DNA from: Granulicella sp.
GTDB lineage: Bacteria > Acidobacteriota > Terriglobia > Terriglobales > Acidobacteriaceae
Reading direction: 5' to 3'
DNA length: 64,000 nucleotides
Assembly (NCBI GenBank): GCA_027339965.1
Contig: DAHWNL010000009.1
Location: forward strand, 29,733-93,732
The position numbers and the translations under genes were made by a program. The notes below the pieces were generated by a model. The model did not search any database. It had not been told where the DNA came from and saw only the letters and a list, made by a program, of their open reading frames with translations. This document shows positions 8,849 through 54,846 of the stretch, piece after piece (positions within the stretch are counted from its first letter, which is position 1; every line of letters starts with the position of its first letter).

Positions 8849-9619
8849 CTATCGGGAGATCCCTTCCAACGGCGAGCTGGCGGTTGCGTAGAGCTTCTTG
8901 CCCATTCTTCCGGCCAGAAACGCCTCGCGCCCGGCATCCACCGCCTTCTTCATGGCGCTGGCCATCAGCACCGGCAGTCTGGAGGCAGCCATCGCCGTAT
9001 TCAAGAGCACTCCGTCGAAGCCCATCTCCATGGCCAGCGCGGCATCGCTGGCCGTGCCCAGGCCCGCATCCACAATCAATGGAACCTCTTGAATGAGCTC
9101 GCGCATCATGCGCAGCGTATACGTGTTCGCGATCCCCAGCCCCGTGCCGATCGGCGCACCCAAGGGCATCACGGCGGAGGCCCCGGCATCGATCAGCCGC
9201 TTGGCAAACACAATGTCATCCGTGGTGTACGGCAGCACGGTAAAGCCTTCCTTCACCAGCACTTGGGTAGCTTCAACGGTCGCCTGAACATCCGGATAGA
9301 GCGTCGCCATATCACCGATCACTTCAATCTTCACCCAATCGGAGAGCCCCACCGCGCGTCCCAGACGGGCCGCGCGGATCGCCTCCTCGGCAGTGAAGCA
9401 GCCGGCGGTGTTGGGCAGCAGAAAATATCTCTTCGGATCGATAAAATCCAGCAGCGATTCTTTGCTACGATCCAGCTCGACACGCCGCACCGCTACCGTC
9501 ACCATCTCCGCTCCAGAGGCCTCAATGGCAGCCTTGGTCTCGGCCCCGTCCTTGTACTTCCCGGTTCCAACGATCAGCCTGGAGAGAAATGCTTTGCCTG
9601 CAATCTTCAATTCGTCCAT
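8849..9619 (-). CDS. thiG: Thiazole synthase
   Basis: [66 protein letters not shown]. Start at ATG 9619 gives 256 aa. Confidence 0.97.
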
Positions 9620-9837
9620 AACCCAGATTTTATTGCACCTGTCCCCGGCACCGAGCGAGGGGCGGATGGTAACCAAATCCGATGATCGGAGACTGAGCAC
9701 GGAGCCCGCTGCCTGTCTTGGGGTCCTCCGCCGGCTGTGCGGCCATCGCAGGCCCGCGGCATTGGAACCGTACCTCTTTTTCTTCTTTCCGCGCAGAAAC
9801 ACCCAGCCAACCGTGTACTCGGCGCTATAGTGTTGGC

Positions 9838-12126
9838 ATGCCGAATCTTCGCTCCCGCCGCAGCGCCGGCCTTCTGCTCACCCTGGCCTGCTTCGTCGCG
9901 GGCGCCCAGACGCCTGCCAAGCCGGCGTCGGCCTCCGTCGCCCCCGCCCAGGCCGTCCTGCGGCGCCTCATGCCCCACCTCGCGCCCCAGTTTCACCTCA
10001 CGCTCAAGCCGGGCCAGCCTGATGCCTTCCGGATCTTCGGCGCTCCTGGCTCCATCCACGTTGAGGCAGCTACCATCCCAACCCTTCTCTACGGCGTTAA
10101 CTGGTATCTGAAGTACGTCGCCCACCTTAATGTCTCCACCAACGGGCTGCGGCTCGGCTCGCCCAACCTGGTTCTGCCCGCGCCCTCCGCGCCCATTGAA
10201 AAACCTGCGCTGTACAAGATTCGCTATGCGCTCAATGAGAACGTGGACGGCTACGCCGGCCCATACTGGAGCGATGCCCGCTGGCAGCGTGAGATCGATA
10301 TCCTCGCTCTCTCCGGCGCCAACGCCATTTTGATCGAGCGCGGCACCGACCTGGTCCTCTACCAGACCTTCCGCGACGCCGGTTACTCCGACCTGGCCAT
10401 CCGCAAATGGATCACGCAGCCTGCTCACCAGAACTGGCAGCTCATGGGCAACATGTGCTGCTTCGACGAGCCCATCTCTCTGCAACTTTTGCGCAAGCGC
10501 GCCGCCTCCGCCCAGCGCCTCATCGCCAGCCTTCGCGCACTCGGCATCACCCCGGTCCTGCCCGGCTACTATGGCATGGTCCCTGGAGACTTCGCCAGGC
10601 TCCATCCCGGCGCCCACGTCAGCGCCCAGGGCGACTGGAACGGCTTTCCCCGTCCCGGTTGGATCGATCCCCGGGACCCCAGTTTCATCTCCCTGGCCGC
10701 CAGCTTCTATCGGCGCCAGCGCGATCTCTTTGGCGATACCTCCATCTATGACATGGAGATTCTTCAGGAGGGCGGATCCACCGGGGACGTCCCCCCCGGC
10801 GCCGCCGCCAAACGCATCCAGGCCGCGCTGGAAGCAGCCCATCCCGGCGCCCTCTGGTTCATGATGGCCTGGCAGAAAAATCCGCTCCCAGCCGTCATCT
10901 CCGCCCTGGACACCTCCCACGTCCTCATCGCCGACATCGAACAGGGCCGCATCGCGCGCAGCGACCGCGACCAGCAGTTCCACGGCGCCGACTGGCTCTT
11001 TGGTGGCCTATGGGAGTTCGGCGGCCGCACCACCCTCGGCGCACCCCTCTACGATTACGCTGTACGCTTCCCGAACATGGCTGCGAAGCCCGGCTCCCAC
11101 ATCGTCGGCACAGCTCTGTTCACAGAAGGCCTGGACACCAATCCCTTCGCCTTCGATCTCTATACCGAGATGGCCTGGCACAGGCATCCGGTTGACCTGA
11201 ACGCCTGGACCCAACAGTACGCCCTCCGCCGCTACGGCAGCCCTACGCGCAACGGCCAGCCGGATCCCCACGCCCTCCGCGCCTGGCAGATTCTGCTCCA
11301 CACCGCCTACGGCTACCATGCGGGTGACGGAACCGCCAAGGGCAGCAGCGAGGGCGACGCCGCGCAGGACTCCCTCTTCAACGCCCAGCCGGACCTCACC
11401 ACCACCCACGCCGGCGTCTGGGCCCCCCATGGCGCGCACTACTCGCTCGCTGACCTCCAGCCCGCCCTGACCGAACTCCTCCAGGTGGCACCCTCGCTCC
11501 GCCACACCGAGACCTACCAGTACGACCTGGTCGACATTGCCCGCCAGGTGATGGCCAATCAGGCCCGCGTCCTGCTGCCCGAGATCCACGCCGCCTACGT
11601 CTCCGGCGACCGCGAGGCCTACGTCGCCCTCACCCGCCACTGGATGCGTGACATGCGTCTCCAGGACAACCTGCTCGCCACGAATTCTTACTTCCTGCTT
11701 GGACGCTGGCTCGGCTACATTCCACCCTGGGCTTCATCCCCGGAGGAACTCCGCCGGCTCAACTACGACGACCGCTCGATCCTAACTACCTGGGGCGACA
11801 GCAAAGCCTCGGAGTCCAGCCTCCACGAGTACGCCAACCGCGACTACGCGGGCCTGACCTCAACCTACTACGCAGCGCGCTGGCAGCTTTACTTCCACTC
11901 CCTGCTGATCGCCATGGACGCCAACACCACCCCAAAACCAATCGACTGGTACGCCTTTGGAGATGCCTGGAACCATCGCATGACCAGCTTCCCCGCCAAC
12001 CCTGTCGGCAACCCCTACACCGCCGCTAGGGCTATTGCCAACGATCTCGAACTGATCCCCGAGCGACCCAAAGACCCGGAGAAGCCAAAGACTTCCCAGC
12101 GGAAGCTGCGTGCCGGTAACCCCTGA
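9838..12126 (+). CDS. Secreted alpha-N-acetylglucosaminidase, GH89
   Basis: Signal peptide; [21 protein letters not shown]...[47 protein letters not shown]....LHEYANR.YAGL...YY..RW. Confidence 0.93.
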
Positions 12127-12281
12127 GGGTTCTTCGCTTTTGCTTGCGCGCTTGCCTTTTGTGAGTCTTGTACTTCTCATCGGTTTCTGTTCGCTGTGAA
12201 CCCAGCCATCGAGCATTGTAGGATCCCGCAGCATTTGCTCTTGCCTTTGGTCTGGAACCAACCCCCGATCGAGGTGTCATC

Positions 12282-13478
12282 ATGACCGAATCCACCTTGC
12301 TACCGGCCACCGAACGCTCCGTCACCATCCCCGAGCAGCACCGCTGGCTATCGGTCGACGTCCTTCGTGGCCTCACCATTGGCTTCATGATCATGGTGAA
12401 CAACAACGGAGGCGGCTCCGCCGCCTACTGGGCCATGAAGCATGCCAACTGGAACGGCTTCACTCCCACAGACCTCGTCTTCCCCACCTTCCTCTTTCTC
12501 GTGGGCATCTCCACCGTCTTCTCCACTCAGGCGCGCCTGGCCAAGGGAGACTCGAGATCCTCGCTTCTCGGCCACGCCTTCCGCCGCGCAATCATCCTCT
12601 ATCTGCTCGGGCTGGTGGTCAACAGCTTCCCGTTCTTCCACCTCGCCACCATGCGCTTCTACGGCGTCCTGCCGCGCATCGCCATCTGCTACCTGATCGT
12701 CGCAGTCTTTTACCTCTACCGTCCCTCCTGGAAGGACAAGGCCGTCGTCGCCGGCGTCTGCCTGCTCGGCTATTGGATCCTGATGCGCTTCGTTCCCGTC
12801 CCCGGCTACGGCGTGCCCACCCATCAGATCTCTCTGCTGGACAAGAACGCCAACCTCGCCGCCTGGCTCGACCGCCAGATCTTCGCTCCCCACCATCTTT
12901 ACGAGGGCGTCCGCGATCCCGAGGGCCTGCTCAGCACCATCCCCGCCATTGCCACCACGCTTATCGGCTTGCTCACCGGCATCTGGCTGCGCTCCACCCG
13001 CCCCATCGCTCAGAAAGCTCGGGCCATCGCCTGGGCCGGCTGCGCCGGACTGCTGAGCGGCGGCCTCTGGAACTTCACCTTTCCCGTCAACAAGAAGCTG
13101 TGGACAAGTTCCTACGTCCTCTACGCCGCTGGTTGGAGCCTGTTGCTTCTGGCTCTCAGCATCTACCTTATCGACATTCTCTCCGCGCGCCGATCCCCAC
13201 CGGCGTCCGACGACCAGATTCGCAAGCGCTACACGATTCTGCTTGTCTTTGGCACCAACGCGATCGCGGCCTACGTTCTTTCCGAACTCCTGCCCGGGGC
13301 CCTCAACCTTTTCCATCCCCGGCCCGGTGTAGCCTTTCTGCGCTGGTTTTACCTCAGCATCCTGAGCAACCTTCCCTACGCGCCCATGGCCTCGATGGTC
13401 TACAGCATCCTCTTCGTCGCAGTCTGCTGGGTCCCCATCTACGTCATGTACCGCCGCCGCATCTTCCTAAAAATCTGA
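12282..13478 (+). CDS. HGSNAT/NagX-like polytopic membrane acetyltransferase (DUF1624/DUF5009 type)
   Basis: RWLSVDVLRGLTI.FMIMVN; KHANWNGFTPTDLVFPTFLF; GVLPRIA; DPEGLLSTIPA; PVNKKLWTSSYV; many hydrophobic helices. Confidence 0.9.
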   Translation: MTESTLLPATERSVTIPEQHRWLSVDVLRGLTIGFMIMVNNNGGGSAAYWAMKHANWNGFTPTDLVFPTFLFLVGISTVFSTQARLAKGDSRSSLLGHAFRRAIILYLLGLVVNSFPFFHLATMRFYGVLPRIAICYLIVAVFYLYRPSWKDKAVVAGVCLLGYWILMRFVPVPGYGVPTHQISLLDKNANLAAWLDRQIFAPHHLYEGVRDPEGLLSTIPAIATTLIGLLTGIWLRSTRPIAQKARAIAWAGCAGLLSGGLWNFTFPVNKKLWTSSYVLYAAGWSLLLLALSIYLIDILSARRSPPASDDQIRKRYTILLVFGTNAIAAYVLSELLPGALNLFHPRPGVAFLRWFYLSILSNLPYAPMASMVYSILFVAVCWVPIYVMYRRRIFLKI

Positions 13479-13636: not shown

Positions 13637-13676
13637 CAGCAACGGCTCGCTCCACCCATGGAGCGAGCCGTTGCTG
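13637..13676. terminator. Perfect 18-bp hairpin, probable 3' end of the minus-strand small transcript or a bidirectional terminator
   Basis: cagcaacggctcgctcca-ccca-tggagcgagccgttgctg. Confidence 0.7.
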
Positions 13677-13685
13677 CAGTGATCT

Positions 13686-13900
13686 GTTGAGATTGACCTG
13701 AGGCATCCGTCCCATGCCGGGGAATGAACCCGGCGGGCTAAGCGCCTCGGAGTTTGCATCCAGACGGAGGGTATCTTCCTTTCCCTCCGCACTCCAGGTT
13801 GAAAGCACGAATGCCTTAAGCCTCAGTCACCTCACGTGTTTTTGTGCAACTGGAACTCTCAATTTTCATAGGCGTTGGATCACCCTCCTTTCCCGTGTTG
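13686..13900 (-). ncRNA. Candidate structured small RNA or small-ORF mRNA
   Basis: On the minus strand the stems aggcattcgt/acggatgcct, gcggaggg/ccctccgt, gccggg/cccggc and gaggtgactgaggc/gcctcaggtcaatctc can form. G-U pairs occur only in the minus orientation. The region is flanked by a promoter-like sequence and a terminal hairpin. Confidence 0.55.
13816..13869 (-). CDS. 17-aa small ORF MKIESSSCTKTREVTEA
   Basis: ATG at 13869, TAA at 13816-13818; preceded by AAAGGAGGGTGATCCAA, a near-exact extended complement of the 16S rRNA 3' tail. Confidence 0.5.
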   Translation of the reverse strand: MKIESSSCTKTREVTEA

Positions 13901-13906
13901 ATCCCC

Positions 13907-13936
13907 AAACTACGCCGCTCCGCGAGTCCACGTCAA
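13907..13936 (-). promoter_or_regulatory. sigma70-like promoter for the small-ORF/RNA unit
   Basis: Minus strand TTGACG (13931-13936) - 18 nt - TAGTTT (13907-13912). Confidence 0.5.
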
Positions 13937-13997: not shown

Positions 13998-14492
13998 TCA
14001 CCTGTCGGAGCCCCACCTTGCGCCAGCGCGGGAGGCCTCCGCGCGGCGTAACCTCAGTCGCAGCACCCAGCCCAGATCGAAAAGCAACGTTCCGAGAACT
14101 GCGAAGACGATCGCCCCTTGATACGTCAACCAGACCGTAGCCAGGATGGCCCCTTCAGGATCTCCGGGAGGATACAGCACCGGGATACTCTCCCCAGCGG
14201 GAAACTCAATCTCCTGCGACCGATGGTTCACTGCATCCAGGGTCAGGAGATCTCCATCCGGCAGACGCAGGCGGAAGCGCGGCGTGTAAACCACCTCGCC
14301 CCGCTGGTTCAGCACCGCTACATTCTCGGTGATGGTCGCCGTCGCTCGCACTCTGGACCGGCTGAAGGCCCAGGAGCGCAGCCCAAATCCCGCAGAGACC
14401 ACAAGCAGGATCACCCCCGCCCAAGGCAGCTTCACAGCCAGCGGAGGAGTTGCCTGCCGCATGCTTCTGCGCAACCAGTTCAGAAACTCCAT
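13998..14492 (-). CDS. Membrane protein, DUF3592-like
   Basis: Two hydrophobic helices flank a beta-rich region with YTPRFRLRLPDG and F.AGESIPVLYPPGDP. Confidence 0.7.
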   Translation of the reverse strand: MEFLNWLRRSMRQATPPLAVKLPWAGVILLVVSAGFGLRSWAFSRSRVRATATITENVAVLNQRGEVVYTPRFRLRLPDGDLLTLDAVNHRSQEIEFPAGESIPVLYPPGDPEGAILATVWLTYQGAIVFAVLGTLLFDLGWVLRLRLRRAEASRAGARWGSDR

Positions 14493-54297: not shown

Positions 54298-54341
54298 ACT
54301 GATCTCCTCCGCCCCCCCTTCGGGAGCGTGGTAGGCAAACG

Positions 54342-54562
54342 GCAGAGGAACCGGTCTCCTGACTGGCGCGATTTCAAGGTCAGCCCGTGACTTCACGAGA
54401 TCCACCCTTCCCAATGTCCGTTGGACGATCAGTGGGGGTCTCTGGGCCGGCCTCACCTTGCCCACTATGCCGCCTAACAAGCGTGCGGAAGGGTCAAGGT
54501 GCGCGCATCACAGTTGCGGGGCAGTGGCGGAGTCTCACCGCGCTTCCCGAACATTCCTTTGC
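54342..54562 (-). ncRNA. Cobalamin riboswitch
   Basis: Minus strand contains GGGAAgcgcGGTGagacTCCgccACTGCCCCGCAACTGT, CCACTG...GGGAAG and the B12 box AGTCAGGAGACC. P1 is gcaaaggaa/ttcctctgc. The TTCCTCTGCC segment can alternatively pair with the SD region GGCGGAGGAG. Confidence 0.93.
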
Positions 54563-54846
54563 GCTAGCGGAATAAAATCAACGCATTGCTCAGGTTGCCG
54601 GCAATGCAGAAACATCAAGCAAGCTGCTTCAACAGCAAAACCAGGGCCGCTCTCTCTCGATCGCAACCTCTTGCTCGGCGCCACCCAAAAGATGCGGCAA
54701 CCCAGGCGGAGGTCGAGAGAGGTTTCAGATGGCCTAGCTTTGCCTTTAGTCTACGGCATGGCATGAGGAAATCTCCAACCCAGCCGACCTTCGGCCGCCG
54801 CAGATCTCTATCTTCGCCGGCGCCTTACGGGATCATCGCCAGCACC

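Follow-up and report, generated by a model that had tools for sequence, protein, structure and literature searches.

Two kinds of small bacterial RNA are the closest described counterparts of the element reported here, a gene for a small folded RNA on the minus strand of a 64,000-nucleotide (nt) stretch of a Granulicella sp. genome (assembly GCA_027339965.1, contig DAHWNL010000009.1, positions 29,733 to 93,732; this whole stretch is hereafter called the window, and its own numbering is used). The first kind is represented by rreB and rreR of the Alphaproteobacteria (Hahn et al. 2016, PMC5711450). The available part of that study describes stand-alone small transcripts with a structured 3' part and a terminator, an architecture that the window RNA has in common with them, and with a 16-17 nt complement of the 16S ribosomal RNA (rRNA) tail and an open reading frame (ORF) of 14-18 codons. 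According to the same excerpts, rreB co-sediments with the 30S subunit and is weakly translated, and removal of its start codon raises its half-life from 10 to 37 min. Overexpressing it 20-fold left growth unchanged, which the authors read as evidence against simple sequestration, and they note that ribosomes far outnumber rreB; synthetic RreB and RreR peptides showed no structure, and making RreB in excess was without effect. The second kind is Ms_IGR-5 (RF02471), labelled 'Actinobacteria sRNA' in Rfam. IGR-5 of Mycobacterium smegmatis sits between MSMEG_5794 and MSMEG_5795; the accessible text of a preprint presents it as validated, uncharacterised, transcribed from an A start and NAD-capped (bioRxiv 2021.12.14.472595), and its detection is also mentioned in the portion at hand of PMC10454040. 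Our literature search, outside which lay the founding report (Li et al. 2013) and a cold-stress supplementary table, returned no description of such an RNA in Acidobacteria and neither an ORF nor a function for IGR-5. The window element is a real, conserved, stand-alone gene, and its sequence points to a distant relationship with Ms_IGR-5, which makes it a member of a catalogued but unexplained kind of small RNA rather than a new kind.

In the direction of transcription the gene comprises a sigma70-type promoter with a -35 box TTGACG (13931-13936) and, after an 18-nt spacer, a -10 box TAGTTT (13907-13912); an extended Shine-Dalgarno (SD) sequence (SD1, 13876-13893); a 17-codon ORF (13816-13869, MKIESSSCTKTREVTEA followed by the stop codon); a second SD-like block, GAGGTG, formed by Glu and Val codons exactly 9 nt before the stop codon (SD2, 13828-13833); and a perfect, terminator-like terminal hairpin of 18 base pairs (bp) (13637-13676). 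A preliminary description, made from the letters of the DNA, had placed all of these correctly, as it had the gap between convergent genes (12282-13478 on the plus strand and 13998-14492 on the minus strand) in which they lie. Because its flanking genes are convergent, the unit is not the 5' leader of any gene in this genome. Both promoter boxes occur at the same distance in 59 of 65 homologues from the host family, Acidobacteriaceae, compared with 0.5% of shifted control positions. From the promoter, a conserved ACAC start and the terminal hairpin, a transcript of about 262 nt is predicted (13637-13898), the 5' end of which probably lies at the ACAC leader or 1-2 nt upstream of it; the Rfam consensus of Ms_IGR-5 likewise begins with ACAC. 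The terminal hairpin is strong in 62 of the 65 homologues with a locatable motif (mean -29.5 kcal/mol) and has covarying pairs in relatives. A U-run follows it in most homologues and is absent from the window copy, and a consensus scan called neither the promoter nor the terminal hairpin of the window unit. As to orientation, the preliminary description had pointed to G-U pairs in the stems that work only on the minus strand. Single-sequence folding does not bear this out, as it is better than that of shuffled sequences on both strands alike (z = -4.89 for the minus and -4.92 for the plus strand); one-sided G-C to G-U changes in the alignment do, however, and together with the promoter, the SD and the ORF they assign the unit to the minus strand. 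Among metatranscriptome contig sets searched at 80% likeness, set X2 yielded two contigs of relatives (187 and 186 nt) on the unit, which, being devoid of strand, end and level information, are a weak hint; sets X1 and X3 of the same study yielded no contigs on the unit.

The preliminary description had proposed to look for homologues in related genomes and to check the length and frame of the ORF. BLAST located the element in 35 of 36 genomes of the same genus, the missing one being 61% complete, and a sequence-only model built from 29 genus copies found one copy per genome in 94 of 101 genomes of the family, each from a different genus. The 65 family homologues mentioned above consist of 30 from the genus, 8 from a wider search, 26 from the family survey and one on a viral contig, and all 65 have an open frame of 14-20 codons. 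No second copy was found in the host genome. Beyond the family, BLAST gave one weak match of 28 nt in the 24 genomes of a neighbouring family, and distant matches were present in 5 of 141 genomes. These distant matches follow a common rule: behind an extended SD comes a short frame, in which GAGGTG stands exactly 9 nt ahead of the stop codon. Written as a strict pattern, this rule picked out 53 genomes among 301 from the phylum, where its reversed control matched none, and at least 120 loci in an all-species collection; among the 80 matches listed, 53 were from Actinomycetota, 23 from Acidobacteriota and one each from Ignavibacteria, Heliobacteriaceae, Syntrophobacter and an unnamed source. 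Two features outside the search pattern recur at such loci: 57 of 85 distant loci have the two promoter boxes, and in 101 of 124 parsed loci, as in the window, an AAUCC-type loop, a CACC strand and a terminal hairpin come one after the other (in 14 of the 124 the motif was not located, and 9 were dropped as mislocated). Several of these counts and of those given below include a few genomes flagged as unpublished (G206, G215, G216, G233, G263, G335, G518 and G534), on which no result depends except the bridge through locus L119 described next.

The relationship with Ms_IGR-5 emerged through intermediates. Rfam searches of the window, at the gathering cut-off and at E ≤ 10, gave weak hairpin matches only at the unit, and RF02471 itself (gathering cut-off 45 bits) had no match at E ≤ 1 in the host genome. 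The preliminary description, which recognised no named family, had suggested this comparison for excluding known ones; the window copy itself has no family match, but 9 of 20 pattern loci tested pass the RF02471 cut-off, and the view that the element stands outside all named families is not supported. Eight of these are actinobacterial and one (L119, 51.6 bits) is acidobacterial, and the bridge to Ms_IGR-5 rests partly on this last locus, the genome of which is flagged as unpublished. Across sampled Actinomycetota, RF02471 matches 50 of 151 genomes, 23 of them above the cut-off. With a profile of 20 distant non-actinobacterial members, L119 among them, the window element was the top match in its genome (E = 5.9e-11 over 13898-13668), and with a profile of 53 actinobacterial members alone it ranked first with an E-value of only 0.093; most profile inputs had been gathered with a pattern derived from the host-family element, which makes the 5' part of these comparisons partly circular. 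Since the window RNA is linked by profiles via intermediates and yet stays below the cut-off, it appears to be a distant relative that fails the formal membership score. Like Ms_IGR-5, it has the ACAC 5' end, an extended SD and a short frame that closes with x-E-V-x-x-x-stop, GAGGUG being located 9 nt ahead of the in-frame stop. Both RNAs also have an AAUCC-type loop, and the CACC strand after it, which buries GAGGUG, leads directly into the terminal hairpin. Each has a promoter of its own and occurs once per genome. Unlike Ms_IGR-5, the window RNA has a 1-nt bulge in SD1, an ATG start and 17 rather than about 12 codons; its family lacks a pseudoknot between a GGAC-type ORF segment and a GUCC-type 3' loop, and has a larger interior and two alternative folds. 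The Rfam consensus structure of RF02471, in turn, is without the helix that buries GAGGUG (helix A, below). Other RNAs compared with the host genome were transfer-messenger RNA (tmRNA), 6S RNA and RNase P RNA, each of which was found above the cut-off on another contig.

SD1 can form a duplex of 17 bp with the 16S tail, with one bulged G and an energy of -26 to -28 kcal/mol. Going by the extent of the free tail in ribosome structures, about 15 of these pairs fall within it. The assembled 16S gene of the host genome lacks its 3' end, and the mature end was taken to be that of the tail GGATCACCTCCTTTCT, which is present in all five complete genomes of the genus; SD1 would pair as far as its last base. 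The bulged base may be A, T or G in relatives, and distant members have no bulge. The strength of the pairing is not unique, as the 31,236 seeded sites in this 61% GC genome include at least 26 others that score equally well or better. Chance is ruled out by the conservation of the element, that is, by its presence in 35/36 genus and 94/101 family genomes and by the promoter boxes in 59/65 homologues. The start codon is located 12-14 nt after GGAGG in 61 of the 65. Extended SDs as such are already known, for instance from Staphylococcus aureus (PMC13009471, as far as the excerpt goes). In rreB and rreR, the complement described in the text at our disposal is perfect and runs into a GTG start, whereas SD1 of the window is bulged and ends 6 nt before ATG (PMC5711450). 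A fold-back of 13775-13766 onto SD1, put forward in the preliminary description, could not be upheld: it beats shuffled sequences in 3 of 55 family members, all close kin, and the segment is part of a hairpin (13764-13790) that varies in length and sequence among relatives. Pairings of SD1 with the 3' CACC strand or with a CCATCC segment were also considered and were dropped by eye, as they follow SD2 or show no covariation.

A 16S complement of this extent brings to mind the ribosome sponge or hibernation-like RNA suggested in the preliminary description, an RNA for the storage or protection of 30S subunits. In this reading an abundant RNA would cap the 16S tail of idle subunits and the ORF would clear it once translation resumes. 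We consider this unlikely, though it deserves serious thought. The pairing up to the last inferred tail base and the single-copy, near-universal presence of the gene in the family are in keeping with it, as is the behaviour of rreB, which, in the available excerpts, stays on the 30S subunit and is more stable when untranslatable (PMC5711450). On the other hand, the same excerpts report the 20-fold overexpression of rreB without a growth effect and the great excess of ribosomes over rreB; the host family keeps ATG in 64 of 65 homologues and a bulge that weakens SD1; and the strict pattern is present in only 53 of 301 genomes of the phylum.

The ORF appears to be conserved for its nucleotides more than for its peptide. 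Frame, stop codon and stop position are kept in all 65 family homologues, lengths differ by whole codons, and the start is ATG in 64, while the N-terminal residues drift. SD2 reads GAG GTG in 43 of 44 homologues of one set and 28 of 30 of another, and synonymous codons do not occur there, although both sets were found without the SD2 pattern and parsed with a script that permitted such codons; three homologues missed by the script also carry GAG GTG. In the host, GAG accounts for 68% of Glu codons and GTG for 39% of Val codons. Changes in the last three codons go along with changes in their pairing partners. Across phyla the frame ranges from 11 to about 21 codons, and actinobacterial members start with TTG, CTG or GTG, some being without a standard start codon; two of these (L193 and L207) have an intact frame and stop with ACG or ATA where the start is expected. 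The absence of synonymous change, the partner-linked last codons, the drifting N-terminus and the non-ATG starts together make it look as if the targets of selection were the nucleotides and the stop position. Alternatively, the gene may exist for its peptide, which is small and Ser/Cys-rich with an (R)EVxxx end and would be made at a low, fold-controlled rate or would arrest the ribosome at termination. An always open ORF with whole-codon indels, synonymous variation at Lys2 and Asp4 within the genus, and an R/S-E-V motif at a fixed distance from the C-terminus across phyla would suit such a peptide. It is nevertheless a rather improbable explanation given the lack of synonymous change in the conserved C-terminal codons, the linked change of the last three residues and their pairing partners, the variation in length from 11 to about 21 codons, and the TTG, CTG, GTG and non-standard starts of Actinobacteria. 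The unstructured synthetic RreB and RreR peptides and the inconsequential RreB overproduction recorded in the accessible part of PMC5711450 point the same way.

The nucleotides at the ORF end belong to a conserved core. In core helix A, 13831-13824 pairs with 13686-13678 and buries SD2; in core helix B, the last codon and the first stop base (13822-13818) pair with 13699-13695; between them lies a conserved asymmetric loop (13687-13694, AATCTCAA), which is of the AAUCC type in other phyla. Among 77 non-redundant homologues from different phyla, the cognate partner is better than non-cognate ones in 74 for helix A and in 60 for helix B, counts that are inflated by kinship. Helix A has 98.3% of its cells paired in the genus alignment, and 54 of 55 family members allow all four pairs of helix B. 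That the 3' end covers SD2 had been proposed in the preliminary description; this was right in spirit, the conserved cover being helix A, whereas the pairing that it named (13702-13694) belongs to an alternative fold. Folding models suggest that the host lineage has two near-equal, mutually exclusive folds. Fold I is a rod of helices A, B and C, the last formed by 13815-13807 with 13710-13702, where two pairs show two-sided change and the own partner pairs better in 48 of 55 family members. In fold II the strand preceding the loop is the partner of the ORF end, and the stop codon is covered by a hairpin (H1, 13801-13818; two pairs, six cells with two-sided change) that excludes helix C. The 29-sequence genus alignment has 98.8% of cells paired in fold I and 96.4% in fold II, with two pairs showing two-sided changes in each; most pairs never vary and are hence uninformative. 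The energy gap between the folds is at most 3 kcal/mol in 34 of 55 family members and at most 5 kcal/mol in 45, and the window copy favours fold I by 4.3 kcal/mol. No T-stem forms at the 3' end, and the idea that this end resembles a tRNA was therefore given up.

Across phyla, the interior between the conserved core strands varies from about 25 to 225 nt, and the only structure common to all of them is the part that includes the ORF end. Distant members have in addition a pseudoknot, in that the codons before GAG complement the loop of the 3' hairpin in 49 of 68; the host family gives no cognate signal for it (15 of 33), and the window copy is without it. Two-sided changes between ORF and 3' hairpin loop (GGAC/GUCC, GGAU/AUCC, UGAC/GUCA) can be seen in L065, L074, L086, L089, L099, L055-L057 and others, and the Rfam consensus of RF02471 does not show this pairing. 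An elaborate and conserved 3' domain, as found in the host family, would also be expected of a non-coding RNA of which the 3' domain binds a protein, with SD1 and the ORF serving to park ribosomes at the 5' end against decay, in the manner of a STAB-SD. The short distance of about 5 nt between the predicted 5' end and SD1, and the conservation of the AAUC loop sequence despite its being unpaired, would fit this account. We rate it as a distinctly unlikely one, for the structure that all phyla have in common includes the ORF end while the interior shrinks to about 25 nt or grows to about 225 nt, and translation shortens the half-life of rreB according to the excerpts of PMC5711450.

We tentatively favour a different reading, plausible though short of probable, in which the RNA is a ribosome-gated, translated structured RNA of the Ms_IGR-5/rre kind whose core is opened by a ribosome that is then held. 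The 30S subunit would dock on SD1 via about 15 bp involving the whole free 16S tail, and initiation would be slow because the SD1 duplex is long and the start codon lies 12-14 nt from GGAGG. The elongating ribosome would then melt helices A and B. Internal SDs of the prfB type pair with 16S rRNA while the stop codon is in the A site, and SD2 is likewise placed for 16S pairing with a stop in the A site. The available text of PMC5737721 also mentions leader-peptide attenuators with an SD before the stop. Unlike all of these, the window RNA has no downstream frame or regulated gene, and its SD2 is buried in a conserved long-range helix. Moreover, +1 frameshifting is driven by a short SD spacing, and the spacing of SD2 matches initiation instead: once the stop codon has entered the A site, 8 nt separate the end of the freed GAGG from the P-site codon, a normal distance for an SD (5-9 nt according to the accessible part of PMC5711450). 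When an SD lies directly ahead of the stop, the release of mRNA from post-termination complexes is slowed 50-fold in vitro, until the subunits split (PMC5737721, in the part available). By re-pairing with the 16S tail, the freed GAGGUG might thus keep the post-termination ribosome on the RNA until splitting. The released RNA would refold into either of the two near-equal folds, so that its fold and turnover would depend on translation, and both its state and its amount would be tied to the supply and recycling of ribosomes. That it is translated, and where, would count for more than the peptide made.

Several points weigh against a ribosome-gated RNA. Helix A shows no two-sided change within the genus, and its mean probability in single-sequence ensembles is 0.08 across 33 family members. 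The invariance of GAGGTG could also be explained by an EV peptide motif or a protein-binding site. The homologues are akin and were selected by similarity, and the counts therefore overstate their independence. The only member of the kind for which there is biochemistry, rreB, lacks GAGGTG at the SD2 position, and the SD used in the recycling study (PMC5737721, as excerpted) was one codon closer to the stop than SD2.

This last comparison with rreB extends further. As far as the available text shows, the rreB ORF has no GAG GTG before its stop and there is no AAUC loop, and the rre peptides are unrelated to that of the window (PMC5711450). Among 80 metagenome loci with an rre-type start, 22 have GAGGTG at the SD2 position, 33 are of the rreB type without it and 14 have 18 codons (rreR-like by length); in the rreB-type and 18-codon loci, read by eye, the 3' part of the ORF seems to pair with a segment before the terminator. 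These loci (L240-L319) also include other families of mini-ORFs with an extended SD, which have 22-26 codons and no GAGGTG block. In Caulobacter vibrioides, to the order of which rre-type genes have been ascribed, RF02471 has a sub-threshold match, a hint that rre and Ms_IGR-5 might be related. Going further, Ms_IGR-5, rreB/rreR and the acidobacterial RNA might form one old, multi-phylum class of ribosome-directed RNAs in which a hidden second SD captures the ribosome at the stop, so that the RNA would sense or buffer termination and recycling, or else would be a carrier guarding the 16S tail of idle subunits; we regard this as a speculative and on balance doubtful generalisation. If true, it would place a general translation-control RNA alongside tmRNA and 6S RNA, the members of which have hitherto been filed as unrelated 'sRNAs of unknown function'. 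In any event the RNA gene is present in 94 of 101 genomes of a large family of soil and acid habitats and can be recognised in at least a third of the sampled Actinomycetota (50 of 151). The comparison yields a specific design, two SDs bracketing a mini-ORF, the second of them enclosed in a helix expected to open only to a translating ribosome, and thereby a natural case for the question of how an SD upstream of a stop affects ribosome recycling in vivo.

The genomic neighbourhood bears on a further possibility, namely that the unit controls thiG or some other gene downstream of it as a leader-peptide attenuator or riboswitch. thiG is located at most 900 nt downstream in 23 of 30 loci of the genus and in 11 of 35 other loci of the family, with the RNA and thiG as direct neighbours in most of the genus; many of the peptides are rich in Cys, and helix A leads straight into the terminator. 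In the window, however, thiG (8849-9802, minus strand) is about 4 kb away and the next gene is the convergent HGSNAT/NagX-like acetyltransferase gene (12282-13478, plus strand). Downstream genes vary elsewhere too (an nrdR-like gene and many others), the Cys count ranges from 0 to 3 or more, neither fold contains a conserved antiterminator, and Rfam shows no riboswitch at the unit. This makes a leader function very improbable, and the RNA is a stand-alone gene with a conserved neighbourhood rather than a thiG leader. Between it and thiG lies a heparan-type sugar-degradation pair that has been inserted, consisting of an NAGLU alpha-N-acetylglucosaminidase gene and the HGSNAT/NagX-like gene (9718-13478, plus strand). 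On its other side, the gene at 13998-14492 (minus strand) is a membrane-type ORF of 164 codons without a Pfam or NCBIfam family, which ends 60 nt upstream of the RNA promoter. Elsewhere in the window, at 54332-54592 (minus strand), a cobalamin riboswitch scores above its Rfam cut-off.

Type I toxin mRNAs have a strong SD, a short ORF and long-range pairing to the 3' end, and the window unit has all three; in this case fold-back inhibition and an antisense antitoxin would be involved. We nonetheless hold a toxin to be the least credible of the explanations and close to negligible. The peptide is hydrophilic in the window and polar in all homologues, which agrees with the dissimilarity to such toxins already pointed out in the preliminary description. 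Its view that the unit is a dedicated RNA gene in its own right, with a small ORF and centred on 16S-tail pairing, is supported as well. The gene is single-copy and vertically kept, the search for spread by mobile elements gave one viral locus and no plasmid match, and the consensus scan, which missed the promoter of the unit itself, called no promoter on either strand and hence no antisense one.

In the sole viral match (L042, 1-180), promoter and RNA are both intact and occupy the extreme end of a 42-kb viral contig; this match more likely represents the host flank of a prophage integrated beside the gene than a phage-borne copy. In one genome (G167) the RNA gene is split at its stop codon by a DDE_3/HTH_33 transposase gene, presumably of the IS630 type (L051 on contig C16 and L058 on contig C44), its 3' half starting another contig, and the gene can thus apparently be lost. 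A second copy in another genome (L210, G018:C1:4176024-4176070) comprises the 3' half only, with the terminator, about 877 kb from the intact gene. It lies between two small exported-protein genes, with no integrase within the 1.6 kb read, and may have been left behind when the RNA gene underwent an integration or rearrangement.
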